Origin: Candidatus Bathyarchaeota archaeon
Lineage (GTDB): Archaea > Thermoproteota > Bathyarchaeia > 40CM-2-53-6
Assembly: GCA_005888745.1 (NCBI GenBank)
Contig: VBBS01000027.1
Coordinates: 55,045 to 119,044, forward strand
Length of the DNA stretch: 64,000 nucleotides
Reading direction: 5' to 3'
Part shown: one piece after another, positions 19,505-61,536 of the stretch
Layout of the letters: the number at the start of each line of letters is the position of its first letter
How positions within the stretch are numbered: position 1 is the stretch's first letter
Notes under the pieces: model-generated
What the model saw: the letters and a program-made list of their open reading frames with translations, nothing else
Told to the model about the DNA's origin: nothing
Databases searched by the model: none
Made by a program: the position numbers and the translations under genes

Positions 19505-20707
19505 ATGAGCCAAGAGTCCGGTTTGCAGAGAGCACCGCTTCTAGATGCATTGAGGGAAGAGCTTAGAGGACTGGATCAGCAGGATTTACTGTGGCGCATC
19601 AAGACCCTTCAAAGTCCATCTGCGCCGCACGCCAAAGTGGATGGCAAGAACGTCATTGTTCTCTGTTCGAACAACTATCTTGGACTGGCAAACCATCCCA
19701 AGCTCAAGAAAGCAGCTATCGCTGCAACTAGAAAGTACGGAGCGGGGAGCGGGTCGGTTCGAGTTATCGCCGGGACTATGGACTTACACGCTAAGCTGGA
19801 AAAGGAACTAGCGGCTTACAGAGGAACCGAGTCCTCGATTACCTTCCAATCTGGTTACGCAACGAATCTTGGGACGATCATGTCCTTGGTCGATGAACGT
19901 GATCTGATCATCAGCGATGAACTGAACCACGGCAGCATTATCGATGGCTGTCGCTTGACGAGAGCGGAGAGACGAGTCTACAAGCACAAAGACATGGGCG
20001 ATCTCGAGAAACAGCTCCAGGGAACAGAACGGTTTCGGAGGATTCTAGTCATAACTGACGGAGTCTTCAGCATGGACGGAGACATAGCACCACTGAAAGA
20101 CATTGTAAAGCTGGCGCAAGAACATAATGCGATGACCTATGTTGATGATGCTCACGGAGACGGTGTTCTCGGTAAGAACGGCCGTGGAATAACGAATCAC
20201 TTCCATCTTGAAGGGAAGGTGGACGTTGACATGGGAACCTTCTCGAAGGCCTTCGGATGCGTCGGAGGATACGTGGTCGGCTCGAAAGACCTCTGCGTAT
20301 ATCTCCAGAACAAGGTCCGAAGCTACCTACTCTCCGGGTCCCATCCACCAGCTGTCGCAGGCGCATGCATTGCAGCGCTTCAGCTCGTCCAGAAACAACC
20401 GTCCTTGGTCAAGAAGCTCTGGGACAACACCCACTACTTCAAGAAAGGCCTGAAAGACATAGGCTTCGATACCGGGAATAGCGAGACCCCTATTACTCCA
20501 GTAATAGTCGGAGAGGCCGGGAAGGCTCGCGAACTAGCAGACAATCTCTTCAAACTAGGAATATTCGTCCTTCCGATCGTCTTTCCGATGGTCGCTCGGG
20601 ACAAAGCTAGGGTCAGGACCATAGTGACAAGTGCTCACACGAGAAAAGATCTCTACACAGCATTGAGAGCCTTTGAGAAGGTTGGCAAACAACTAGCACT
20701 AATCTAA
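19505..20707 (+). CDS. kbl: 2-amino-3-ketobutyrate CoA ligase (glycine C-acetyltransferase)
   Basis: PLP-dependent class II aminotransferase fold with conserved Lys region (TFSKAFG). Confidence 0.9.
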   Translation: MSQESGLQRAPLLDALREELRGLDQQDLLWRIKTLQSPSAPHAKVDGKNVIVLCSNNYLGLANHPKLKKAAIAATRKYGAGSGSVRVIAGTMDLHAKLEKELAAYRGTESSITFQSGYATNLGTIMSLVDERDLIISDELNHGSIIDGCRLTRAERRVYKHKDMGDLEKQLQGTERFRRILVITDGVFSMDGDIAPLKDIVKLAQEHNAMTYVDDAHGDGVLGKNGRGITNHFHLEGKVDVDMGTFSKAFGCVGGYVVGSKDLCVYLQNKVRSYLLSGSHPPAVAGACIAALQLVQKQPSLVKKLWDNTHYFKKGLKDIGFDTGNSETPITPVIVGEAGKARELADNLFKLGIFVLPIVFPMVARDKARVRTIVTSAHTRKDLYTALRAFEKVGKQLALI

Positions 20708-31226: not shown

Positions 31227-32735
31227 GTGGAGTTGCGTGAGAATGATGTTAAAGTCCTGAGAACTCTCCGGGACGCGGGCGGAATCGCTTCAGCTGAAGA
31301 TATAATCCGGAAAGCCGGCATAGTCGACGCGGCTGTTGCCCGCGCGTCACTCACACTGTCAGAACTAGGCCTAGTCAAGGAACAGACAACAAGGACCACC
31401 GAAATATTTTGTACCGAGGAAGGACATGATTATCTGGCTAATGGACTACCCGAGCGAAGGGTCGCCACGGTAGTTCACGATGCCGGGGGAAAACTCTCGG
31501 TCAGCGAAGCGGTCCAGCAAGCGGGTCTGCCACAAGACTTTGTCTCAATAGTCACAGGCTGGATTGCCCGCAAACGCTGGGGAAAGATCGAGAAAACAAG
31601 TTCAGGCAATATTCTACTGATCTCGAAAAACCCGCCCAAAGACGAAGATGAAGAGGTTCTCGAGAGAATTGGCCATGTCAGCATTCCAATAGAAGAATTG
31701 CCGAGCAACCTGAGACAAGCAGCCGATAGACTCCTCAAGAGAAACATCCTGGCCTCGAAGGAACGAGTACAGCGGAAACTACAGATCACCCCTCAAGGGT
31801 TGGACGCGATTCCGGCCCAAGCATCTGTCGATGAGATTAGCAGTCTAACAAGCGAGATGATTCTCTCTGGAGACTGGAAGAGAGTCCACCTTCGATCGTA
31901 CAATGTTTCTTCACCTGTCCCTTCGCTCAGTCCTGGAAAGTATCATCCTTACTTGCGATTCTTGCGGAGGGTCAAACGGAAGCTTGTTGCGCTCGGGTTC
32001 AGAGAGGCTGTCGGACCCCTGGTCGAAACCGCCTTCATCAACGACGACTGCCTCTACATGCCGCAAGATCATCCAGCGAGAGAAATCCACGATCTCTACT
32101 ACCTGAAACACCCGTCCAAAGCGAGCCTGGAATCATGGAAGGAAATCGTGGAGAAGGTAGCGCAGACCCACGAGAACGGCTGGAAGACAGGGTCCACCGG
32201 ATGGGGCTACAAGTACTCGAGAGAAGAAGCCTCCAAACTAGTCCTTCGGAGCCACGGCACCGCTCTAAGTGTCCGGTCAATGATTTCCAAGGACCTTCAG
32301 ATTCCAGGCAAATACTTTGCTATCGCGAGGTGCTTCCGGCCCGAACTCCTCGACAGAACTCACTTGACAGAATTCAACCAGGCGGAAGGGATCGTTCTCG
32401 ATCCCAGCCTCAACCTACGCAATCTCCTCGGGGTCTTGGAGATGTTCGCTCGCGAGGTCGCGGGGGCCGACAGGGTCCGTTTCAAACCCGACTACTTTCC
32501 ATTTACAGAACCCAGTGTCGAGTTGCAAGCCTACAAGGAAGGATACGGATGGATGGAGTTCGGCGGCAGCGGAATATTTAGACCCGAAGTCACAGAACCC
32601 CTCGGCATCAAAGTACCCGTGATCGCGTGGGGGCTCGGAATAGACAGGCTGTTCATGATGAACCAGCAGATCCAGGATATCAGACAGCTCTTCACAACTG
32701 ACCTCGAATGGATAAGGCAACAGAAGGTCGGCTAG
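31227..32735 (+). CDS. pheS: phenylalanine--tRNA ligase alpha subunit
   Basis: Class II aaRS motifs (FRPELLDRTHLTEFNQAEG, GSGIFRPEV). GTG start. Confidence 0.9.
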   Translation: MELRENDVKVLRTLRDAGGIASAEDIIRKAGIVDAAVARASLTLSELGLVKEQTTRTTEIFCTEEGHDYLANGLPERRVATVVHDAGGKLSVSEAVQQAGLPQDFVSIVTGWIARKRWGKIEKTSSGNILLISKNPPKDEDEEVLERIGHVSIPIEELPSNLRQAADRLLKRNILASKERVQRKLQITPQGLDAIPAQASVDEISSLTSEMILSGDWKRVHLRSYNVSSPVPSLSPGKYHPYLRFLRRVKRKLVALGFREAVGPLVETAFINDDCLYMPQDHPAREIHDLYYLKHPSKASLESWKEIVEKVAQTHENGWKTGSTGWGYKYSREEASKLVLRSHGTALSVRSMISKDLQIPGKYFAIARCFRPELLDRTHLTEFNQAEGIVLDPSLNLRNLLGVLEMFAREVAGADRVRFKPDYFPFTEPSVELQAYKEGYGWMEFGGSGIFRPEVTEPLGIKVPVIAWGLGIDRLFMMNQQIQDIRQLFTTDLEWIRQQKVG

Positions 32736-32736
32736 A

Positions 32737-34422
32737 ACGCCCTCAGTCCAATTCTCTCTGGCGGATCTGGAAGATCTCCTTGGACAGAAGGTTCCCCGAG
32801 ACGAAGACGGGCTCAACCAGCTCCTCGCCTACGTCAAGGGCGACGTGGAATCCCTCGACGAACAGAATGACAGCGTCAGCATCGAGGTCAAAGACAGCAA
32901 CCATCCCGACATCTGGTCGGTAGAGGGAATCGCACGCGCTCTCCGCACTCATCTCGGTCTTACCAAGCCCAAGGCTCCAATCCTTACCGGAAAATCCGGT
33001 CTGAGAGTCACAATAGATCGTAGACTAGGTGCAGTCCGGCCTTTCATCGCAACCTCCATCGTGAGAAACGTCAAGCCAAGCGAGGACGCCCTGAAGAGCT
33101 GGATAAGCCTACAAGAAAAAATGGACCTCACGTACGGTAGAAAGAGAAAACGTGCCTCAATCGGGTTCTACCAAGCCGACCTGATCAAGTCACCTCTTCG
33201 CTACACTGTTGGCAATCCTGAAGACACAGGGTTCGTCCCCCTAGGCTCAACAGAGAAGATGTCTCTCCGAGAGATTGTAGAGAAGCATCCTAAGGGAATT
33301 GAGTATGGAGGAACAATCTCATCTTTCAAAGACTGGCCGCTCCTGGAGAACGGCGACGGCAAGATTCTCTCTCTTCCACCAATCATCAACTCCAACGATC
33401 TGGGCAAGATCGCCTCAGATACGAAGAACATCCTGGTAGAGGTCACAGGGACGAATATCGAAACCGTAGGCAATACGCTGAAGATAGTCGTAGCCGCTCT
33501 CGCCGAAAGAGGAGGCAAGATCTACAGCTGTACTCAAACCTACACGGACAAGTACTCCAAGCCGATAACTACGCCAGACCTGAAATCCAGCATCAAGGAA
33601 TTATCAGTCAACTATGCTAACAGACTTCTTGGATCCACGTTCAAACCAGCAGAGATGATACGATCCTTAGTGAGAGCCGGCCATCCTGCTCGACAGGTGA
33701 GTAAGGACATCTTGCGCGTGGAGAGCCTCTGCTACCGTATCGACATCATGCATCAAGTTGACCTCGTCGAGGATCTCGCGATCGCACTTGACATTAACAG
33801 GCTAGATCCTGAATGGCCGAGAATCTGGACTCTCGGGGGACTAGCGCCTGAAACAGATAGACACGAGACTCTTGCCGAAATCATGATCGGGCTAGGATAC
33901 CAGGAGCTTCTGACCTACAGTCTGACATCCCCTGAAGTCTTCGTTGACAAGATGGGCATAAAACGCGAAAAATACGCGGAGCTGATGAATCCTAAGATGT
34001 CAACCCATACCGCATTGAGAACCTGGCTTCTACCCAGCATTCTCAATTTGCTCAAGGACAATACTCATGTCGATTATCCTCAGAGAGTCTTCGAGATCGG
34101 ACCTTGCGTAGTTGTCAAAGAAAATGGCGAAGGTCAGACGGAAACTCGATACAAGATCGCTGCGGCGACAGTTCACACAGCAGCCGGCTTCACTGAGATT
34201 CGATCTTGCCTCGACACACTCCTCGCAAGCATCGGGGTCAAGTTCGAGGTCGTGCCCACGGTTCAACCGAGCTTTCTCGAGGGACGCACTGGGGAGGTGA
34301 TGTCAGGGCAAGAGCGACTAGGAGTAGTTGGAGAGTTGCACCCGAAGATAATCCGTGCTTGGAGTCTCAGCCTCCCCGTCGCAGCTTTCGAACTAGAGAT
34401 TCCACCAATGGAGGCTGGTTAG
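32737..34422 (+). CDS. pheT: phenylalanine--tRNA ligase beta subunit
   Basis: The PheT-like N-terminus (PSVQFSLADLEDLL...IEVKDSNHPDIW) runs in frame back to ACG 32737, 2 nt after the pheS stop. The ORF track starts at GTG 32845, which removes the conserved N-terminal domain. Confidence 0.85.
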   Translation, partial: TPSVQFSLADLEDLLGQKVPRDEDGLNQLLAYVKGDVESLDEQNDSVSIEVKDSNHPDIWSVEGIARALRTHLGLTKPKAPILTGKSGLRVTIDRRLGAVRPFIATSIVRNVKPSEDALKSWISLQEKMDLTYGRKRKRASIGFYQADLIKSPLRYTVGNPEDTGFVPLGSTEKMSLREIVEKHPKGIEYGGTISSFKDWPLLENGDGKILSLPPIINSNDLGKIASDTKNILVEVTGTNIETVGNTLKIVVAALAERGGKIYSCTQTYTDKYSKPITTPDLKSSIKELSVNYANRLLGSTFKPAEMIRSLVRAGHPARQVSKDILRVESLCYRIDIMHQVDLVEDLAIALDINRLDPEWPRIWTLGGLAPETDRHETLAEIMIGLGYQELLTYSLTSPEVFVDKMGIKREKYAELMNPKMSTHTALRTWLLPSILNLLKDNTHVDYPQRVFEIGPCVVVKENGEGQTETRYKIAAATVHTAAGFTEIRSCLDTLLASIGVKFEVVPTVQPSFLEGRTGEVMSGQERLGVVGELHPKIIRAWSLSLPVAAFELEIPPMEAG

Positions 34423-34423
34423 G

Positions 34424-35578
34424 ATGGTCGAGGAGAAGTTCGTCGTAACCCCTTGGGAGGTCAAGGGGGCGGTCGATTATGACCGACTGATCCGGGACTT
34501 CGGAACCCAACCGATAGCCGGCCTGCTGACCAAGAGGATGGAGGAGATTATGGGTGATGCTGGCTACCTCATCCGCCGGCACATCTTCTTCTCACACCGA
34601 GACCTCAACCTTGTTCTCGACGACTACTCGAAGGGCAAGGGATTATTCCTGTATACTGGTCGTGGACCTAGCGGTCCGATGCACATTGGCCACATACTCA
34701 GCTTCTACTTCACAAAGTGGCTGCAAGACAAATTTCATTCAAACGTCTACATTCAGATAACGGATGACGAAAAATTCCTTGAGGAGAAGCGGAACCTAAC
34801 CTACGAAGATACTCAACGATGGGCTGTAGATAATATTCGTGAAATTGCCGCGGTTGGCTTCGACCCTGATCGGACTTTCATTCTCCAAGACACGGAGTTC
34901 ATCGGACACGCGTATCCTCTAATTCTGAAAATAGCCCGGCGAGTCAATTTCAGCCTCGCCAAGTCAGTTTTCGGGTTTACTGGCGAGACAAACATCGGTT
35001 TCGCTTTCTACCCATCGATCCAGATTCTTCCAACCCTTCTCGAAAAAAGGCGCTGCCTCATCCCGTCGGCCATAGACCAGGACCCATACTGGAGGATACA
35101 ACGCGACATTGCCGAATCCATGGGATACTACAAGGCTGCTGCCGTTCACAGCAAGTTCCTGCCCCCGCTAACAGGGATGAAAGACAAGATGAGCTCATCA
35201 AAACCCGAGACTGCAATCTACCTCAGCGATGATGACAAGACGGTTCGGAACAAGGTATACCGGTACGCTTTTTCTGGTGGACAAGCGACCAAGGAGGAAC
35301 ATCGGAAGAAGGGTGGAGACCCCGATGTTGATGTTCCCTTCCAGTGGCTCTACATGTTCTTTGAGCCCGATGACAAGAGAATAGAGCAGATACGCGTCGA
35401 GTACAAAAGCGGCCGAATGCTTACAGGGGACCTCAAAGACATACTCATTGAAAAGGTGACAACATTTCTCAACCAGCACCGACAACGTAGAGAGAAAGCT
35501 GGCGACCTCATACATTTCTACAAGAAAGACGGGACGCTTGCACAGGAAATGTGGACTCGTGACTTCAGTAAATCGTAG
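34424..35578 (+). CDS. trpS: tryptophan--tRNA ligase
   Basis: Class I motifs (PSGPMHIGH HIGH-like, KMSSS KMSKS-like). Confidence 0.9.
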   Translation: MVEEKFVVTPWEVKGAVDYDRLIRDFGTQPIAGLLTKRMEEIMGDAGYLIRRHIFFSHRDLNLVLDDYSKGKGLFLYTGRGPSGPMHIGHILSFYFTKWLQDKFHSNVYIQITDDEKFLEEKRNLTYEDTQRWAVDNIREIAAVGFDPDRTFILQDTEFIGHAYPLILKIARRVNFSLAKSVFGFTGETNIGFAFYPSIQILPTLLEKRRCLIPSAIDQDPYWRIQRDIAESMGYYKAAAVHSKFLPPLTGMKDKMSSSKPETAIYLSDDDKTVRNKVYRYAFSGGQATKEEHRKKGGDPDVDVPFQWLYMFFEPDDKRIEQIRVEYKSGRMLTGDLKDILIEKVTTFLNQHRQRREKAGDLIHFYKKDGTLAQEMWTRDFSKS

Positions 35579-43170: not shown

Positions 43171-43665
43171 TTGAGTAGGCCTTCAAAGCAGGTAAGCACT
43201 TCCAAGACCACTCTCTCCAGTCAGATGATGCCTGTGGACGCCAATCCGATGGGAAACGTGCACGGGGGCACAATTCTCAAACTTGTCGATGTCGCCGCCG
43301 GAGTCACGGCCCTGCGACATGCGAGAACTATTGTGGTCACCGCAAGCATCGACCGTATGGACTTTTACCATCCAGTCTATGTCGGCAACCTTCTCAACTT
43401 CAAGGCCTCAGTCAACTACGCTGGAACAACCTCGATGGAAGTCGGAGTAAGGATAGAAGCTGAGGACCTGAAGACTGGTAGAATAACACACACCGGCTCA
43501 TCCTACCTCACCTATGTTGCTATAGATGAGAACGGACAACCAGTCGAGATTCCCGACGTCATCCCGGAGACACTTGACGAAAAACGACGCTGGAGAGAAG
43601 GAAAAAAGCGAAGGGCCGAACGCCTCAAGATCCTACAAGATCGAAGGAGCAAGGGCAAGGCCTAG
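43171..43665 (+). CDS. acyl-CoA thioesterase (hotdog fold, YciA/PaaI-like)
   Basis: MPVDANPMGNVHGGTILKLVD hotdog signature. TTG start, with an internal ATG at 43225 also possible. Confidence 0.8.
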   Translation: MSRPSKQVSTSKTTLSSQMMPVDANPMGNVHGGTILKLVDVAAGVTALRHARTIVVTASIDRMDFYHPVYVGNLLNFKASVNYAGTTSMEVGVRIEAEDLKTGRITHTGSSYLTYVAIDENGQPVEIPDVIPETLDEKRRWREGKKRRAERLKILQDRRSKGKA

Positions 43666-43677
43666 GGTCGACAAAGA

Positions 43678-44562
43678 ACGAAAGTCGCAATTGTAGGGTT
43701 CGGCATGATGGGCCGGCAGATAGCCCAAGTATTCGCCCAAAATGGCCACGAGGTCGAGGCCACGGATGAGGATCAGCAAGCACTGAAGGCGGGGCTCAAC
43801 GAAATAGCAGACGGGCCCTACGGATTGCACGCGGCTGTTTCAAAAGGAAAACTGGCTGCAGAGCAAGCTCACAGGACTCTAGCAGCCATCAAGACAAGAC
43901 CCGAGCTAGCGGATGTTTGCAAGAACTCGACTCTTGTGATCGAGGCAGCCTTCGAGGAGCTGCAACTCAAACAGAATCTGTTTCACAGAATTGAATCTGC
44001 TGCGCCACCAACTGCGATCATAGCATCAAACACTTCAACCTTGAGCCTGGACAAGATCACCCAAAGAATCTCAAGGAAGGACAGAACGATTGGAATGCAC
44101 TTCTTTAATCCAGCCCAGCTCACAAAACTCGTCGAGATCGTCCGAGGAACGTCGACATCACCTGAAACACTAGAGAAAGCGTCCCAAATCGTCCGGGAGA
44201 TCGGTAAGACCCCTATCCTCGCCCAAGATGAGCCTGGTTTCATCGCCAACCGTCTCGGACTCACCCTCTACATGGAGGCTTCAAGACTGCTAGAGGATCG
44301 TGTCGCAAGTCTCTCTGACATCGACACGTGCATGAGACTCGGATACAACCATCCAATGGGACCCTTCGAACTAGCCGACTTCGTCGGACTTGACACCAGA
44401 CTTCGGAATCTAGAATCACTCTACAAGTCAACGAATGAAAGTAAATGGATACCACCTCAGATTCTAAGAGAGATGGTCCAACAAGGATACCTCGGCGACC
44501 CTGCTAGAAAGAAGACGAGCAAGGGCGGATACTACGAGTATCTCCGGATAAAGCGAGGATAA
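43678..44562 (+). CDS. hbd: 3-hydroxyacyl-CoA dehydrogenase
   Basis: Rossmann motif VAIVGFGMMG plus C-terminal HAD domain. The ORF-track start ATG 43705 cuts through GxGxxG. The frame is open back to the stop at 43663, and the only start-like codon there is ACG 43678. Confidence 0.85.
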   Translation, partial: TKVAIVGFGMMGRQIAQVFAQNGHEVEATDEDQQALKAGLNEIADGPYGLHAAVSKGKLAAEQAHRTLAAIKTRPELADVCKNSTLVIEAAFEELQLKQNLFHRIESAAPPTAIIASNTSTLSLDKITQRISRKDRTIGMHFFNPAQLTKLVEIVRGTSTSPETLEKASQIVREIGKTPILAQDEPGFIANRLGLTLYMEASRLLEDRVASLSDIDTCMRLGYNHPMGPFELADFVGLDTRLRNLESLYKSTNESKWIPPQILREMVQQGYLGDPARKKTSKGGYYEYLRIKRG

Positions 44563-47985: not shown

Positions 47986-48077
47986 AACAACAACAGTCTA
48001 GCCCGGTTCCATCTGACATATTCCTCGGAAAACGTTCTTCTAATCAGACCCGTCAGTTCTAGGACAGGAGCGGGGAA

Positions 48078-49235
48078 GTCTTAGGCCGCATCGGAATCGT
48101 TGGAGTTGGACATTCAAAGTTCGGAAAAAGGAGCGACGCCTCCCTCCGAGAGCTAGCATTCGAAGCGTACAGTTCCGCCCTAGATGACGCCGACATCGAC
48201 TCTTCAAAAATAGACGGTTCAATAGTTTGCTCCGCCACTCACTACGACAAGCAACGATCGCCTGCAGGTGTTGTTGCGGAATATCTCGGACTCAATCCCC
48301 AACCAACATTCAACGTTGAGGCAGCCTGCGCCTCCAGCGCTGTTGGCCTTCGGACCGCGTGGGCGCTTGTCTCATCAAAACTTCATGATGTGGTGGCCGT
48401 TGTGGGGGTGCAGAAGATGACCGAACTCTCCTCGGAGGAGATCCAGGAGCTCATGGGCAGAGCAGGGGACGTCATGTGGGAGTCTCCCTTCGGAACAACA
48501 ATGCCCGCATACTACGCCTCCTATGCTAACGCCCACATGGCCAAGTACGGAACTACAGAGGAACAAATGGCGCTCGTGTCGGTGAAGAACCGAAAATACG
48601 GATCCAAGAATCCTAACGCCATGTTTCAAAAACCCATCCAATTGGAAGAGGTCCTAAAATCGCGAATGGTATCTTATCCTCTAAAACTATACGATTGCTG
48701 CGCCAATGCTGACGGGGCGGCATGTCTGCTCATTACTAGTGCCGAAAAAGCAAAGAAAATTTCTGATAGACCCGTATGGATCTCCGGGCTTGGCCTGGCT
48801 TCGAGTCCCATGTCGCTTGCTGGAAGAAAAGGTCCATTGACGAGTTTCGATGCCACAAGAAATGCGGCGAGAACGGCATACGAAATGGCCAATATCAAAC
48901 CACACGACGTACATGTGGCGGAGGTTCATGACTCTTTCTCGGTAACAGAAATCATCAATTATGAAGACCTCGGATTCGCACGACCTGGAAGGGGTGCTAA
49001 GCTTCTGGAAAACCAAGGCACGGAGCTCGGCGGGAGAATCCCCGTCAACATCGACGGAGGCTTGATTTCCAAAGGCCATCCAGTCGGAGCCACAGGCGCG
49101 TCCCAGATCTTCGCATTGGTCAAACAACTACGGGGGGAAGCGGGTAGCGTTCAGGTCGACGGCGCTAAGATTGGTCTCGCACAGAACATAGGGGGAATAG
49201 GAATGTACTGCTCCGTTACGATCTTGCGCTCATGA
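48078..49235 (+). CDS. thiolase (SCP-x-type acetyl-CoA C-acyltransferase)
   Basis: Thiolase N-terminal domain (GRIGIVGVGHSKFG...AACASSAVGL active Cys) is in frame with the called ORF 48390..49235. The frame opens at 48063, and there is no ATG, GTG or TTG before 48390. Start position uncertain. Confidence 0.75.
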   Translation, partial: VLGRIGIVGVGHSKFGKRSDASLRELAFEAYSSALDDADIDSSKIDGSIVCSATHYDKQRSPAGVVAEYLGLNPQPTFNVEAACASSAVGLRTAWALVSSKLHDVVAVVGVQKMTELSSEEIQELMGRAGDVMWESPFGTTMPAYYASYANAHMAKYGTTEEQMALVSVKNRKYGSKNPNAMFQKPIQLEEVLKSRMVSYPLKLYDCCANADGAACLLITSAEKAKKISDRPVWISGLGLASSPMSLAGRKGPLTSFDATRNAARTAYEMANIKPHDVHVAEVHDSFSVTEIINYEDLGFARPGRGAKLLENQGTELGGRIPVNIDGGLISKGHPVGATGASQIFALVKQLRGEAGSVQVDGAKIGLAQNIGGIGMYCSVTILRS

Positions 49236-55353: not shown

Positions 55354-55643
55354 CAGAGATGCTCACTAACGGTTGAGGAAATTGGAACTCTATGCCTTAG
55401 GACATCTTTAACCACAGTCAATCGGTGTAGGGAACAACCAGGCTTTTGAATTGAACTCATTGGGAAGCCGGTCTAAACGGTGCTCGCACGAGAAATGCAT
55501 AGTGCAATCCACATAGTGGAGCCGTTCTTGAGCCTCAACTCTTACATTGAGCATCCTTCTCCCGGATTCCCGGTCCTACGGATAGTGATGTTTCTCCGGA
55601 CATTCGAAGACTTCTAGCTCCGACCGGAATAGAAAGTTACATA

Positions 55644-56051
55644 TTGTGGCAGGCGTATGACAAGTCAGCTTTGGAACTTGGAGATCTCGAGGCAGCTGTC
55701 CTCGGGACAGTTGTTCGGCTTGGCAACGCTTCTGCCCGCCAAGTCGCTCAGGACCTGCATGCTACCCGTGGACTCGCATACACTACAATCAGTACAACGC
55801 TGGATCGTCTTTACAGGAAGGGGATCTTGGCCCGTGATGAGGCTGTTGGCAGAGGAGGGTCCAGATACGTGTATCGCCTTCACTCCGAGGACAAGGTCAA
55901 GGGTCGAGTCGTGAAAGGATTCGTTGACAGGTTGCTCACAGCCTTTGGACCCAGCATTATCTCGACGTTGCATGACTACATGGATGAGATTCCAAAGGAG
56001 GACCTGAAGAAGCTGGAAGAAAGAGTTCGTAGGGAGTCCGGGCAACGATAA
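55644..56051 (+). CDS. BlaI/MecI/CopY-family winged-helix repressor
   Basis: ARQVAQDL...LAYTTISTTLDRLYRKGILAR matches the penicillinase-repressor family pattern. TTG start. Confidence 0.7.
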   Translation: MWQAYDKSALELGDLEAAVLGTVVRLGNASARQVAQDLHATRGLAYTTISTTLDRLYRKGILARDEAVGRGGSRYVYRLHSEDKVKGRVVKGFVDRLLTAFGPSIISTLHDYMDEIPKEDLKKLEERVRRESGQR

Positions 56052-56956
56052 GCCTGGAACTGTACTCGCTCTACTTCCTTTCGACAGCTACCCTGGGAAT
56101 TGTAGCAACAGTTCTGATAGTCCAAATTGCTTCCTATATCGCCTACCGATCAAGTGTGGGAAATCCCTCTCGCAGATCCAGCCTCCTATATCCGATACTA
56201 TCCTCTTCTGTTTTCTTCTGGTCGTTTCTTGGAACTAGCCTTGTAGTGTGCACGCTCTTCCTCAATATGTACGAGTGGCAATCACAACGAGTGATAAGAC
56301 TCGTGTTTGGAAGTTCGCTGGTAGCATCTATCGGAATCTCCTCTCTCATGTCCCTTATTGCTCGAAGATACGCGTTCCCTAGAATGCTTGGGGGAATGAT
56401 CGCAGGAACATTCTCGAGCTCTAGACTGAGCGAAACATGTGCGGAGCTATGCAACAAGATGGGTATCAAAGGAGTCGACCTTAGAGAAGCTAGGGTGGGA
56501 AACGCGTTTTCTTTGGACAATGGGAGTTGGAAGGTCGTTGCCGTATCTCCCGAGCTGGTGAGTTCCATGTCACCGGCGGAAGTCGAGGCGGTCATTGCTC
56601 ACGAGATCTCTCACTTGAAGAACAAGGATTCTCGAGAGAAGGGACTTGCAAGGCTGGCTAAACTGGCCTTCGTTTTTGACCCCGTGCTGCATCTTGTTGA
56701 GGCTGCGGTCCACAGAGAACGTGAACTCCTCGCCGACCAGTTGTCAGTGGAATACACTCAGAAGCCGTTGGCACTCGCATCAGCTTTGCTGAAGGTTCAT
56801 TCAGCCTTCCACGCCCCATTGCCTGGGCCTGGAGCCGGATTGTTTGTAGGTCGAAAGACAAGAGGTCTCTTGAGCAGGTATCCCGACCTTGATCGAAGAG
56901 TCCAGCTGCTAATTGACATGGACCGAGAGATGAAGACTCAGACGATCCCCGCCTGA
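56045..56956 (+). CDS. M48/M56-family zinc metallopeptidase (HtpX/BlaR1-like), membrane
   Basis: HEISH (HExxH) and downstream ELLAD (ExxAD) zinc-ligand motifs. The N-terminal TM helix (ISLELYSLYFLSTATLGIVATVLIVQIASYIAY) lies upstream of the called GTG 56156, in frame back to ACG 56045, which overlaps the blaI-like stop (ACGATAA). Confidence 0.7.
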   Translation, partial: TISLELYSLYFLSTATLGIVATVLIVQIASYIAYRSSVGNPSRRSSLLYPILSSSVFFWSFLGTSLVVCTLFLNMYEWQSQRVIRLVFGSSLVASIGISSLMSLIARRYAFPRMLGGMIAGTFSSSRLSETCAELCNKMGIKGVDLREARVGNAFSLDNGSWKVVAVSPELVSSMSPAEVEAVIAHEISHLKNKDSREKGLARLAKLAFVFDPVLHLVEAAVHRERELLADQLSVEYTQKPLALASALLKVHSAFHAPLPGPGAGLFVGRKTRGLLSRYPDLDRRVQLLIDMDREMKTQTIPA

Positions 56957-57025
56957 AGGAACGCTCTTTTATAGCCTCACCAGGTTTGGATTGCGGACTT
57001 GACAGTTCAAATTCAGAAATACAAA

Positions 57026-58431
57026 ATGCTGATCGGGGGAGAGTGGAAGGACAGCGCAAATGGCGCTGTTTCATCAGTTCTTGATCCTTCAAACAACGTA
57101 CAAGACAGGACGCGAAAGCTGCAGTCGTGAGTGCGAAGATCGCGCTGGAGTCGGCCGGCTGGGTCGACATTGATCCCAGCAAGAGAGGGCGTCTCCTAAC
57201 TAAGCTCACAACTCTGGTCAGGGAGAATTCAGAGCAGCTGGCAAAGCTTGAAACCATGAGTGAGGGGAAGACTCTCCGAGAGTCTAAGGGTGATGTTGCC
57301 TGGGCGGCCAGGGCGTTCGAGTACTGGGCAGGACTGGCGGACAAGGTTGAAGGAGAAACCATACCTGTTCCGCCGAGACGTCTGAACTACACTCTTCGTG
57401 AGCCGCTAGGCGTAACGGTCCATATTGTTCCTTGGAATTATCCGATCGCGCTTGCTGCTAGAAGTTTGGCACCGGCAATTGCAGCAGGGAATACTGTTGT
57501 CGTGAAACCGTCTGAGATTACTCCTCTTACAGCGATTATGCTGGGAGATCTAGCGCTTAAGGCCGGCATCCCCAAAGGTGTTATCAACGTTGTAACTGGA
57601 TCAGGTGCTGAAGTAGGCGAAGCACTTGTGTCGGACCCGCGAGTGGACGGGATAGTTTTCACAGGGTCCGCTGAGACAGGAACGCAGGTGATGGAGTCAG
57701 CCGCGAAAAATGTTACAAGGGTACTTCTGGAGTTAGGCGGTAAGAACCCGCATATTGTCTTCCCTGACGCCGACTTGGCGAAGGCCGCTAAGAGCGTGAA
57801 GGAAGGCATTTTCACCAATGCTGGACAAATGTGCTGGGCCGGATCTAGGGCATTCATTCACGAGAGCATATACGATGATTTCGTAAAGGACCTCGTCGCC
57901 AAGACCCGAGCGATAAAGGTCGGGCCTGGAAGAGATGATACCAGCGAGATGGGACCCTTAGCCTCAAAGGCTCGGCAAGACGTGGTTCTCGGGTTTGTCA
58001 AGGACGGCCTCGAAGAAGGGGCAAGTCTTCTCTGCGGGGGGAAGAAACCATCTGACCCAGGACTGCAGAAGGGAAATTTCGTCGAGCCCACCATTTTCGA
58101 GAACGTCAACGGGAAGATGAAAATCGGGTGCGACGAGATTTTCGGACCTGTTCTGGGCCTTACCCAGTTCAAGACTCTCGACGAGGTTGTTGCTATGGCC
58201 AATGAGACAGATTATGGACTATACGGGGGAGTCTGGACGAGCAATTTGAAAGTCGCTCATGAACTCGCTGTTCGTCTCCAGGTCGGTGGACTAGCCGTGA
58301 ACGAGTATTTGGTGACCTTTCCGCAGACCCCGTTCGGCGGCTACAAGGACAGCGGAATAGGACATGAAAACGGCATACGCTCGTTAGAATTCTACACACG
58401 AACCAAGAATGTCTCGATAAACCTTTCCTAG
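57026..58431 (+). CDS. aldehyde dehydrogenase, interrupted by a -1 frame change near 57085-57127
   Basis: Main body 57127..58431 (catalytic Cys region AGQMCWAGSR, ELGGKNP). The conserved N-terminus MLIGGEWKDSANGAVSSVLDPSNN is encoded from ATG 57026 in the frame offset by +1 and stops at 57130. The body frame opens at 57085. Confidence 0.75.
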
Positions 58432-58767: not shown

Positions 58768-59694
58768 CTAGGTAAGCTCGTCCAGCAACGGCGTAATATC
58801 ACGGTTGTAAATATCCTGCTCGACAAAGGGCTTTTCTTTCAGGGCGGGCATTCGAAGAGCCAGCTGGTCCTCGAAGGTAGGAACCTCCATCTTGAAGAAA
58901 ACCCCGATCGGTATCTTGTCGCCCCACTCGAAAGACTTCACCAGGGCATTTCCCTTCTTTGTGTTAACCTCGTCCGTCGTGGGATCGGCAACCGTACCAT
59001 TGTACCCTGAATCCTCCAGCTTGTAGAGCCTCGGTGCCTTGACCGGAAGATCTTCGCCACCATACCATTCTTTCGTGTTGATGTCGTTATAGGTCGGGCA
59101 TGTTTGCAGAACATCTACGAACGCGCTTCCCCGATGTTCTATTGCCGCTCGAAGGGTTTGCTTCAAGTGGCGAACGTCAAGAGCATAACTCCGCGCAACG
59201 AACGTATAGCCCGAAGCGACTGCCATAGCGATCGGATTCACACGCTCAATGATCGCGGGGGCAGGCATCGATTTCGTTTTCACACCCTTCGGCAGGGTCG
59301 GAGATGCCTGACCTTTTGTCAAGCCGTAGACTCCATTATCGTAGAGCACGTATGTGAAATCCAGGTTCCTTCGACCAGTATTGACGAAGTGGCCTGCTCC
59401 TATTCCCAGTCCGTCTCCGTCGCCACCAACAGCGACAACGGTCAGTCCTGGGTTAGAAAGACGGGCACCAGTAGCGATTGGAAGGACACGGCCATGGAGA
59501 GTATGGAACCCGTACGCGTTAACAAAATGAGGTGTCTTGCCTGAGCATCCGATTCCCGAGAAGATCGCGACCCTGTGGGGTTCAAGCTGCATTTCTAGAA
59601 GGGTCATCTGAATCGCGTTGACGATTCCGAAGTCTCCGCAACCAGGGCACCAGTCGTTGTGAACCTGTGTCCGGTAGGTCTTTAGCTCAAGCAT
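58768..59694 (-). CDS. korB: 2-oxoacid:ferredoxin oxidoreductase beta subunit (TPP-binding)
   Basis: CPGCGDFGI motif and TPP-binding GDG region. Confidence 0.9.
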   Translation of the reverse strand: MLELKTYRTQVHNDWCPGCGDFGIVNAIQMTLLEMQLEPHRVAIFSGIGCSGKTPHFVNAYGFHTLHGRVLPIATGARLSNPGLTVVAVGGDGDGLGIGAGHFVNTGRRNLDFTYVLYDNGVYGLTKGQASPTLPKGVKTKSMPAPAIIERVNPIAMAVASGYTFVARSYALDVRHLKQTLRAAIEHRGSAFVDVLQTCPTYNDINTKEWYGGEDLPVKAPRLYKLEDSGYNGTVADPTTDEVNTKKGNALVKSFEWGDKIPIGVFFKMEVPTFEDQLALRMPALKEKPFVEQDIYNRDITPLLDELT

Positions 59695-61536
59695 GAGATA
59701 CGGTTACCTCTTTGATTCCGTTCTTTATTATGTCTTTGACACCCTCGTAGATTTCGTTCTGGGAAAACGGTCTTCCGTCGAACTTTACAATAGTATTGTC
59801 CATTGCAATACCGGTTTTCTCACGGATCAACCCTGCCATCTGTGCGGAGTAATTGTTTTCGATCGCGATCTTCCGCCGGGCCGAACCAAGTGCCTGCTGA
59901 ACGAAGCTTGTTGGGAACGGGCTAACGTATCGCACCTGTAGAAAGTTTGTTTCTATCCCGTCGCTCTTGAGGTCTTCCATGCCGTCGAGTATCGCTCCCT
60001 TCGATGACCCCCAGCCAACGAGTGTAATCAGAGCCGATGTTGGTCCGTGCAAGGTTGCCTTCTTTGAGTCCGGTATTACTTGTCCAGCAAGCTCGATCTT
60101 TCTCATTCTCTTCCTCATCATCTTGATCCGGATATCCGGCGCCTCCGTGATATGACCATACTCGTCATGCTCATCTCCAGTTGTCCAGAAGATCCCCCCT
60201 TTCTGACCAGGAATTGCTCGGGGGGAAATTCCCAGTTCTGTCCAACGGTAGCGTCGATGCTTATGGCGAGATCTGATTCTCGAACCAAGTCTCCCCGATC
60301 GACCTTCAGGTTGTCGCCGTTGAAAGGAGGAATATCTTGGTAGGTGCTCGCCAGGAACTTGTCGGTCAGAAGTATGACGGGCACTTGGTAGCGTTCCGCG
60401 TAGTTGAACGCGTCGAACGTGTCGTAGTAAGTTTCGACCACATCTCCGGGTGCAATAATTATCCGAGGAAATTCTCCATGGGCAGCGTGAAGAGCAAATC
60501 TTAGGTCTGCTTGCTCCGTCCGAGTCGGCAGCCCAGTTGCAGGACCTGCCCGCTGATATAGCACGACAACTGGTCCAGGGGCTTCAGTTATCCCGGCCCA
60601 CCCCAAGCCTTCGGCCATAAGAGAAAAGCCCGGTCCAGATGTAGAGGTAGAAGATCTGAGACCAGCGTGAGCCGCACCGGTGGCCATGTTGATCGCGGAA
60701 ATCTCGTCCTCTGCTTGTACGACTATCATATTGTAGTCCTTCTGGTGGGACTCCAAGTACTCGCTCTCGTCCGTTGCTGGTGTAATGGGATAGTAGGTTT
60801 GGAATCCACATCCGGCCTTGAGTTTCGCGATAGCCACGGCTTGTACACCTCTGATCATCATTCGCTTTCCAGACAGCGGTTGCTTTCGCAGCTTTATCGG
60901 AAACGCATCTTCGCCGAAACCCGCCTTTGCATAATCGTATCCGCGTTTCGCGGCGCTGACGTTTAGGTCGCCGAGAGCTGCCTTGCGTCCGGTGAACCCT
61001 TCTCTAATGGCCTCGGTTGCGAGGTCAAAGTCGTAATCGGCGAGGCCAAGGGAAGCCCCTAGAGCAATCGTGTTGACCATAACCTGGTACTTGCTCAGTT
61101 CCTTGTCCTTTCCAAACTCCTTCAGCGCCTCGACAAGGAGATCCATGTAGGGGATCGGAAAGAGTTTGATATCATCACGCCCGAAAGAGTCAGGTGACAG
61201 GTTCAAGCTGCGATCGTAGATTATTCCACCTCCAGGGCTGACCTCGTGTCTATGCCCTCGATGGGTAGGACGAAGCTTGTTCATGTCGCCGAAGATTGTT
61301 TCCCGGTCGAGGGCTACGAGTAAGTCTACCCAGTCCACGTGGGATCTGGGCGCCTTTGACTCTACTCTGAGCCTGTAGTAGCTATGTTCGCCCTTGATGT
61401 TGGAGTGATACTCGATGTTGGCAAATATGTGAAGTCCTCCACGAATGCATGCTTTTGCAAAGTTCTCTGCAACCGAGTTGATCCCGCTGCCTTGAGGACC
61501 GCCTATCATCCAGGTGAAACTGTTGGTTACTGTCAA
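59687..61536 (-). CDS. korA: 2-oxoacid:ferredoxin oxidoreductase fused gamma-alpha subunit, split by a -1 frame change near 60250-60280
   Basis: Called as 60118..61536 (472 aa) plus 59687..60121 (144 aa). The downstream frame, extended upstream, reads RYRWTELGISPRAIPGQKGGIFWTTGDEHDEYGHITEAPDIRIKMMRKRMRKIE, the conserved alpha-subunit segment. The upstream ORF's last ~45 aa are out-of-frame junk. Confidence 0.8.

Follow-up and report, generated by a model that had tools for sequence, protein, structure and literature searches.

A conserved ACG codon as the probable translation start of a BlaR1-like protease gene in a Bathyarchaeia operon

Operons of the BlaI/BlaR1 (MecI/MecR1) kind, in which a repressor is paired with a membrane protease, are known from bacteria. 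A sensor-less form of BlaR with the repressor gene upstream is represented by BlaI Rv1846c and BlaR Rv1845c of Mycobacterium tuberculosis. With regard to non-AUG initiation, near-cognate ACG starts are used in eukaryotes and viruses, e.g., for VP2 of adeno-associated virus and C′ of Sendai virus, and ACG starts in plant organelles are restored to AUG by RNA editing. Furthermore, experiments in Haloferax volcanii as well as in Escherichia coli have demonstrated termination-reinitiation for gene pairs that overlap, and Shine–Dalgarno (SD) motifs often contribute to it (PMC6728339). The locus described here is a two-gene operon of a Candidatus Bathyarchaeota archaeon, situated in a stretch of 64,000 nt (contig VBBS01000027.1 of assembly GCA_005888745.1, positions 55,045-119,044, forward strand) that is called the window and to which all coordinates below refer. 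The first gene encodes a blaI-like repressor and the second a BlaR1-like peptidase, the translation of which most likely starts at the ACG codon 56045-56047 rather than at GTG 56156, the first canonical start. Ribosomes would reach this ACG either by SD-guided initiation or by re-initiation following termination, after finishing the repressor, and the ordinary initiator Met-tRNA would pair with it as a near-cognate codon.

Initiation codon of the peptidase gene

The features that bear on the start of the peptidase are the following, TM standing for transmembrane and ORF for open reading frame.

56045..56047, + strand: ACG at which translation of the peptidase is proposed to begin; the same in all of 21 diverse junction sequences and in 45/45 operon sequences
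56045..56956, + strand: re-annotated ORF of the peptidase (303 codons and a stop), which encodes three TM helices and, after them, an HExxH domain
56049..56051, + strand: TAA (TAG in some relatives) that terminates the blaI-like gene and falls within the 7 nt with which the peptidase ORF begins
56060..56149, + strand: segment encoding TM helix 1 (TM1), residues 6-35, wholly upstream of GTG 56156
56156..56158, + strand: GTG, first canonical start, mechanically called; rejected, as it would delete TM1

Conservation within the close clade was assessed in a 1330-nt alignment of the operon, which contains 45 distinct sequences with an overall mean identity of 0.879. In addition, nine diverged junction subclades with 48-94% protein identity were compared, i.e., the window type, L083, L142, L081, L141, L143, L146, L147, and L148. 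A protein search for peptidase relatives yielded 288 of them, a metagenome scan yielded 57 independent loci from soil metagenomes, and remote homologs came from 1.84 billion representatives that were searched exhaustively with HMMER. One member of the peptidase cluster, HEX9430451.1, originates from Candidatus Bathyarchaeia, and one relative of the pheT gene discussed below bears the same lineage name. When other contigs were profiled with the peptidase alignment query, only remote bacterial or archaeal M48 genes, with at most 29% full-length identity, were present among the matches listed. Residues of the peptidase are counted from ACG 56045.

An earlier note on this DNA had claimed that the peptidase frame stays open upstream of the called GTG and encodes a TM helix there, and both claims are borne out. 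After a TAG at 56030-56032, the frame is open from 56033 (GGA GTC CGG GCA ACG ATA AGC CTG GAA CTG, with the ACG at 56045), and no ATG, GTG or TTG is present in the 41 codons between this TAG and GTG 56156. On its own, an open stretch of 41 codons is not significant. In each of the nine subclades, the peptidase is read in the -1 frame with respect to blaI, and the relatives likewise lack a canonical start before TM1, apart from sporadic internal starts that are not conserved. TM1 is the most hydrophobic segment of the protein, with a Kyte-Doolittle 19-residue peak of 2.05. In an AlphaFold2 model, residues 2-40 of the open frame form one long helix, with a predicted local distance difference test score (pLDDT) of 86-90 over residues 21-40. 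All orthologs and remote homologs carry an N-terminal TM segment, so that the comparison of orthologs, on which the earlier note had made its proposal depend, turned out in favor of it. The ratio of non-synonymous to synonymous polymorphism (pN/pS) of the extension (56048-56155) among the 45 sequences is 0.285 in the peptidase frame versus 1.6 and 1.2 in the other frames, and it is 0.17 for the remaining peptidase. Moreover, the tblastn match begins at the first residue of the extension in 56 of the 57 soil-metagenome loci. Because pN/pS is low only in the peptidase frame and the tblastn matches run from residue 1, the extension is judged to be coding and under purifying selection.

These data bear directly on the possibility that the called start is right, in which case a protein with two TM helices would be made from GTG 56156 and the upstream frame would be non-functional. 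It is true that GTG 56156 is the first canonical start, that a two-TM topology still puts the HExxH motif on the cytoplasmic side, and that PGAP and Prodigal call similarly short proteins (176-266 aa). However, this GTG is not conserved, its place being taken in relatives by GTA, ACA, CAA, CCA, GCT, ACG, GCA, GCG or ATG, and the 36 codons upstream of it are under in-frame purifying selection and homologous to TM1 of the remote homologs and of BlaR1. In addition, the callers chose many different starts. As gene finders and NCBI table 11 disallow an ACG start, the peptidase is miscalled in the clade at no less than 10 different positions (at least 10 wrong starts among the orthologs), each of which removes part or all of TM1. 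The resulting scatter of the called lengths, from 176 to 302 aa, is typical of a family in which the callers miss the true start. Initiation at GTG 56156 is considered highly improbable.

Within the open frame, ACG is the only start-like codon that is invariant over the nine subclades. Their first four codons are given below, together with the SD-like motif and its spacer to ACG for six of the subclades.

Window type: ACG ATA AGC CTG
L083: ACG ATA GCC CTC
L142: ACG ATA GAC CTA; SD-like motif GGAAGGGA, spacer 8 nt
L081: ACG CTA GAT TTG; SD-like motif GAGGGGGA, spacer 4 nt
L141: ACG TCA ATC CTG; SD-like motif AAGGAA, spacer 8 nt
L143: ACG GAA GGA CTA; SD-like motif AGGGAGG, spacer 7 nt
L146: ACG ATA AGT CTA
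L147: ACG GTA GAT CTC; SD-like motif GAGGGG, spacer 6 nt
L148: ACG TCA AGC CTA; SD-like motif AGGGAG, spacer 8 nt

Codon 2 varies (ATA, CTA, TCA, GAA or GTA), and the variation at codon 4 is the usual one among synonymous Leu codons (CTG, CTC, CTA, TTG). In L143, ACG is the sole single-mismatch near-cognate ahead of the helix core, and in L142 the frame opens just one codon ahead of ACG. The middle base of the codon, 56046, on which the proposal of the earlier note hinged, is C in all 45 distinct operon sequences and T in none, independent assemblies having been used here in place of reads. This conservation also argues against an error in sequencing or assembly, by which an ATG would have been turned into ACG through a T-to-C change, and against a pseudogene. 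Such an explanation could draw on the damaged genes in the neighborhood, as the aldehyde dehydrogenase gene has a 25-nt deletion compared to L088 and the gene for the alpha subunit of a 2-oxoacid:ferredoxin oxidoreductase (POR alpha) is split. Nevertheless, the sequences with C at 56046 stem from many independent metagenomes, the peptidase gene is under purifying selection, and the ACG of pheT is identical in L149, another genome. The probability of an error or a pseudogene is negligible.

The ACG is also part of the blaI-like gene, in whose frame the triplet is read as xxA-CGx. The residue before the Arg is Q, K, P or R, with a codon that always ends in A, and the Arg itself is always encoded by CGN and never by AGR, all four third bases being seen. 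Within their amino acids, CAA accounts for 43% of the codons in the window, AAA for 38%, CCA for 22%, AGA for 26% and CGN for 58%. The fixation of xxA-CGx despite these alternative codons points to selection on the ACG triplet itself and not on the BlaI protein alone. In addition, the blaI stop shifts among the subclades by up to two codons (the protein ending in R, RQS, RKD or RQA), at a distance of at most 10 nt from ACG, while the ACG is fixed.

The remote homologs offer a second view on the start position. They are about 300 aa long, have 22-36% identity, and match the peptidase colinearly, with residue 4 of the query and residue 4 of the homolog paired at the beginning of the match. In approximately 30 of them, the first residue, M (or V/L, corresponding to GTG/TTG), aligns exactly on the T encoded by ACG, and the N-terminal pattern reads M (or V/L)-x-x-[LI]-E-[FY]-x-x-x-Y-F-T-S. 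At the DNA level, L144 has TTG at the equivalent position, 2 nt past the blaI stop, and L145 has ATG, with GGGGG 6 nt upstream of it and the blaI stop 11 nt downstream. Because the first residues of the remote homologs fall on the ACG column, the ACG holds the ancestral start position of the peptidase family. This agrees with the proposal of the earlier note that the true start lies at this ACG, upstream of the called GTG, and the predicted N-terminus of the peptidase becomes (M)ISLELYSLYFLSTATLGIVATVLIVQIASYIAYR.

The ACG is not the only start-like codon in the region, as had been stated in that note. ATA 56048, which overlaps the blaI-like stop as ATAA, and CTG 56054 and 56060 are further near-cognates in the same frame. 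The peptidase could start at one of these, the ACG being kept only for the BlaI C-terminus and the ribosome-binding region. Both ATA and CTG are among the more efficient near-cognates of E. coli, a class that initiates at 1-3% of AUG (bioRxiv 10.1101/063800). In the close clade, ATA 56048 does not vary, and its ATAA is the closest analog of ATGA, and CTG 56054 is CTG in 43 and TTG in one of the 45 sequences. Moreover, TTG aligns with this CTG in the distant ortholog L081, which is called at that codon, and the aligned CTG of L141 forms a CTGA with the stop. However, neither ATA 56048 nor CTG 56054 is conserved across the subclades, L143 does not have any near-cognate besides ACG ahead of the helix core, the remote homologs begin at the ACG column and not one or three codons later, and CTG 56054 is 17 nt away from the SD-like motif. 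A start at ATA or CTG is thus unlikely. Of the two codons, CTG 56054 was favored early in the analysis, based on the TTG in L081 and L125 and the CTGA in L141, and was dropped as further subclades gave CTA or CTC. ATA 56048 as a true analog of ATGA was rejected, codon 2 being unconserved beyond four subclades.

Ribosome-binding context and RNA structure at the junction

Three features surround the ACG at the junction of the two genes.

56031..56036, + strand: SD-like AGGGAG inside the blaI coding region, invariant in 45/45 distinct sequences
56031..56058, + strand: near-invariant junction block AGGGAGTCCGGGCAACGATAAGCCTGGA, from the operon alignment of 45 distinct sequences
56037..56058, + strand: possible RNA hairpin with arms 56037-56043 (UCCGGGC) and 56052-56058 (GCCUGGA) and the 8-nt loop AACGAUAA

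The GGAG within the SD-like motif (56033-56036) ends 8 nt before ACG, 11 nt before ATA 56048 and 17 nt before CTG 56054. In 8 of the 9 subclades, SD-like G-rich purine motifs are found approximately 4-8 nt before ACG. Canonical genes of the window have GGAGG-type motifs 4-13 nt before ATG, GTG or TTG, e.g., at 34424, 28386(-), 14249, 8232(-), and 24780. Positions 56031-56051 are the most conserved 21 nt of the operon, with a mean identity of 0.987 that exceeds even that of the catalytic motif. The ACG stands 1 nt before the blaI-like stop, and ACGATAA, 7 nt in all, is common to both ORFs. The overlap that had been noted earlier between ACG and this stop therefore holds for the ORFs; the two codons do not share bases, as A 56048 lies between ACG and TAA. 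With this 7-nt overlap, stop and restart are within the proximity expected for termination-reinitiation. Translation of the peptidase would in this way be coupled to that of blaI, which may affect the ratio of protease to repressor.

The loop AACGAUAA of the possible hairpin contains both the ACG and the blaI-like stop. For a segment of 63 nt, RNAfold gives -24.6 kcal/mol (z = -3.96). In the alignment of the hairpin, 81% of the cells are paired, the covariation score is reached by 11 out of 500 shuffles, and two pairs have compensatory changes (C-G to U-A and G-C to A-U) in L146, L148, and L142. A hairpin that presents the ACG in its loop is thus no more than suggested. Should it exist, the SD motif could be hidden in it until a ribosome translating blaI opens the structure. 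An Rfam search of the whole window matched no family, hence no known RNA element at the junction and no rRNA.

The extreme conservation of the junction and its possible folding into a hairpin would also suit a fusion of BlaI and the peptidase, produced through a programmed -1 frameshift of the ribosome close to where blaI ends. Two other observations point in the same direction, i.e., the offset of -1 that recurs in the nine subclades, and the database protein P0095, which joins Penicillinase_R and peptidase domains. However, no slippery heptamer of the type X XXY YYZ is present between TAG 56030 and TAA 56049 (AGG GAG TCC GGG CAA CGA TAA), and none is common to the subclades. In L142, the -1 frame opens just one codon before ACG, and L145 has a different frame offset. 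In P0095, a BlaI-like C-terminal half is joined straight to the catalytic domain and all TM helices are skipped, which makes it look like a deletion or a chimeric assembly. Because of the missing slippery site, and because the remote homologs are stand-alone proteins that start at the position of ACG, the frameshift fusion was rejected and is regarded as very improbable.

Several points weigh against initiation at ACG. Part of the conservation of the codon is shared with a conserved Arg near the C-terminus of BlaI, the nine subclades are not phylogenetically independent, and ATA 56048 is as invariant as ACG within the subclade of the window and is in SD range (11 nt). The SD-like motif is weak in L146, and the hairpin is only partly conserved, being out of register in L081, L141, and L147. 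ACG is not counted among the starts of the bacterial and archaeal code (table 11). Reviews give only AUG, GUG, and UUG as archaeal starts (PMC7531240; PMC4705826). In an E. coli reporter, ACG does initiate with Met, at a low level, and it is in the class of codons that initiate at 0.01-1% of AUG (bioRxiv 10.1101/063800).

Other ACG starts in the window

The window was additionally scanned for genes with an open frame far upstream of the first canonical start, and three further cases were found. The first is pheT (+ strand), in which the pheS stop TAG (32733-32735) is followed by A and then by ACG 32737-32739 CCC TCA GTC CAA TTC. Read from this ACG, the ORF comprises 561 codons and begins with T-PSVQFSLADLEDLLG. 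Homologs with 58-62% identity are 555-563 aa long and start with MPSVQFSL.DLE, their M being at ACG 32737 of the window. An AAGGT is located 8 nt upstream of the ACG. Of the canonical starts, the first to follow is GTG 32845, at a distance of 36 codons from ACG. The starts called in close relatives are scattered (524-564 aa), and most of these relatives are 8-36 codons short. The pheS/pheT junction GGCTAGAACGCCC is identical in the independent genome L149 (9889-9895).

Secondly, a 3-hydroxyacyl-CoA dehydrogenase gene (+ strand) reads ACG 43678 AAA GTC GCA ATT GTA GGG TTC GGC ATG, i.e., T-KVAIVGFGM(MG), and its ACG is found 12 nt past an in-frame TAG, that of the thioesterase gene upstream (region 43663-43707). 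The L149 ortholog (20365-20380) has TTG AAG GTC GCA ATT GTC GGG and is called at the TTG on the ACG codon. The first canonical ATG of the window gene (43705) would cut into the Rossmann GxGxxG motif. Thirdly, the frame of scpB (- strand) reads GAG ACG ACG GAA after the TGA at 7586-7584. The Pfam ScpB model begins at residue 22 of this frame, and the first ATG is residue 38. Homologs with 94% identity and 197 aa start with MEAQVSTNTA versus T(ACG 7577-7575)ETQVSTNTA in the window, which puts their M at the second ACG. The scpB ORF would overlap scpA by about 23 nt (20 nt when counted from the homolog-aligned second ACG), and there is no clear SD motif. The predicted N-termini of the three proteins are as follows.

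pheT product, from ACG: M-PSVQFSLADLEDLLGQK
3-hydroxyacyl-CoA dehydrogenase, from ACG: M-KVAIVGFGMMGR
scpB product, from ACG: M-ETQVSTNTAQQK

Altogether, ACG stands exactly at the start column of the homologs in 4 of the approximately 55 genes of the window, and it makes up 1.3% of the window codons. On balance, it seems that this soil lineage of Bathyarchaeia uses ACG as a regular fourth start for SD-led, operon-internal genes, with a relaxed or altered discrimination of the middle base, and that such genes are N-terminally truncated in public annotations. The sequences point to ACG switches of different age, some being old, as in the whole peptidase clade, and some very recent, as in scpB compared to its 94% identical relatives. 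Because pheT is essential and its output must match that of pheS, initiation at ACG probably amounts to more than leakage in this organism.

The same four starts among some 55 genes, one of them the essential pheT, whose output is needed 1:1 with that of pheS, argue for efficient initiation above the near-cognate leakage of E. coli. They could therefore be taken as support for a different decoding of the ACG, either by C-to-U editing of the mRNA or by a variant initiator tRNA or initiation factor that accepts ACG. However, nothing in the data requires altered decoding, and archaea are not known to edit their mRNA from C to U. Altered decoding is quite improbable compared to near-cognate pairing with the ordinary initiator Met-tRNA. 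A tRNA scan of the window did not reveal tRNA genes. In the literature that was searched, by a search that was not exhaustive, no report of ACG starts for archaea or Bathyarchaeia was found.

A thiolase-like gene (48063-49235, + strand) was also encountered that has 109 codons open upstream of its first canonical start (48063-48389). Position 3 of the Thiolase_N model aligns to residue 12 of this open frame (DRSGEVLGRIGIVGVGHSKFG). An AGGAG at 48066-48070 is followed by no ACG, ATG, GTG or TTG, and the candidates for a start are GTC, TTA, and ATC.

The operon and its comparison with known systems

The identity of the two genes is based on the features above and on two more.

55644 or 55671..56051, + strand: blaI-like winged-helix repressor gene (Penicillinase_R, Pfam PF03965, 65.2 bits)
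56600..56614, + strand: HEISH zinc-binding motif of the metalloprotease, with H190, E191, and H194 invariant in the alignments

The blaI-like ORF has 135 codons (or 126) and ends with CAA CGA TAA, and the Penicillinase_R model, with a cut-off of 22.6 bits, begins at its residue 12, counted from 55644. Its start (region 55551-55671) is ambiguous, with TTG 55644 and TTG 55671 as the two candidates, and the called length of orthologs ranges over 125-139 aa. At every orthologous locus, a blaI-like gene is located 5′ of the peptidase, and the pairing of adjacent, co-directional genes holds for all orthologous and remote loci examined. The peptidase ORF ends with the stop codon 56954-56956. Its product matches Peptidase_M48 (PF01435, 58.5 bits, cut-off 20.3 bits) and Peptidase_M56 (PF05569, 44.1 bits, cut-off 31 bits), in both cases above the curated cut-off. 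The hydropathy profile contains three hydrophobic segments, at residues ~6-35, 50-75, and 83-106. Downstream of HEISH lies the Glu-ligand region HRERELLAD, and H190, E191, H194, R228, E231, and D235 are invariant across 32 homologs. The AlphaFold2 model of the peptidase has a pLDDT of 79 and a predicted template modeling score (pTM) of 0.75. Its top Foldseek matches in the PDB are the cryo-EM structures 8EXS, 8EXP, and 8EXQ of Staphylococcus aureus BlaR1 (E = 3e-4 to 7e-4), with a TM-score of only 0.42-0.44. A C-terminal penicillin-binding sensor was not found, as the ORF ends at residue 303, right after the protease domain, and has no Pfam match to a transpeptidase or beta-lactamase. The product of 56045-56956 is thus predicted to be a sensor-less, three-TM zinc metalloprotease of the BlaR1/M56 type, in a two-gene operon with a BlaI-type repressor. 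The operon type itself is ordinary.

Two neighboring genes are interrupted. The aldehyde dehydrogenase gene 3′ of the peptidase is split into 56999-57130 and 57127-58431 (+ strand), either as a pseudogene or through an assembly gap. Approximately 25 nt are missing near 57095 relative to L088, orthologs have 476 aa, and the L141 copy is also split. The 2-oxoacid:ferredoxin oxidoreductase alpha/gamma gene (POR alpha, 59687-61536, - strand) consists of two frames, 60118-61536 and 59687-60121, the latter with a long open upstream stretch, and its L083 ortholog is a single protein of 609 aa.

If translation indeed starts at ACG, the whole BlaR-like protease family and a share of the Bathyarchaeia genes are mis-annotated. 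It would also provide a natural, conserved case of archaeal ACG initiation, which could be used to study the discrimination of start codons by aIF1 and aIF2. Archaeal initiation factors resemble the eukaryotic ones. A weak or coupling-dependent start would, moreover, be a simple way to tie the protease to the synthesis of its repressor.

The operon presumably works in the manner of BlaI/BlaR1 (MecI/MecR1), with which it shares a Penicillinase_R winged-helix repressor adjoining a polytopic membrane HExxH protease of the M56/M48 type. The archaeal protein differs from BlaR1/MecR1 proper, the beta-lactam sensor-transducer, in that it lacks the C-terminal penicillin-binding domain, and it does not qualify as a member of that group. 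It is more like the sensor-less BlaR of mycobacteria. Gene order is opposite to that of blaR1-blaI in S. aureus, as the repressor comes first here, which is also the order in M. tuberculosis. Furthermore, the host is here an archaeon (Bathyarchaeia), and the start of the protease is non-canonical.

With coupled overlapping pairs (ATGA, TGATG), the junction shares a restart a few nt from the stop, an SD motif in the upstream coding region, and co-directional, functionally linked genes (PMC6728339). Those pairs use AUG, GUG or UUG with an overlap of 4 or 1 nt, whereas ACG with an overlap of 7 nt is found here. A likeness of ACGATAA to coupling of the ATGA type is plausible. The other ACG starts of the window differ in their position relative to the upstream stop, at 1 nt after it in pheT, 12 nt after it in the dehydrogenase gene and 23 nt before it in scpB. 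As in plant organelles, C replaces T in the start codon of the DNA, but there is no sign of editing in the archaeal data. Finally, the codon is identical to that of the eukaryotic ACG starts, presumably with the same single middle-base mismatch to the initiator anticodon. The eukaryotic cases need scanning and a Kozak context, whereas the archaeal start is conserved, SD-led, operon-internal and seemingly recurrent, even in an essential gene. The conserved ACG start together with its recurrence in the genome would add a further form of non-AUG initiation, in an operon of a type that is already known.

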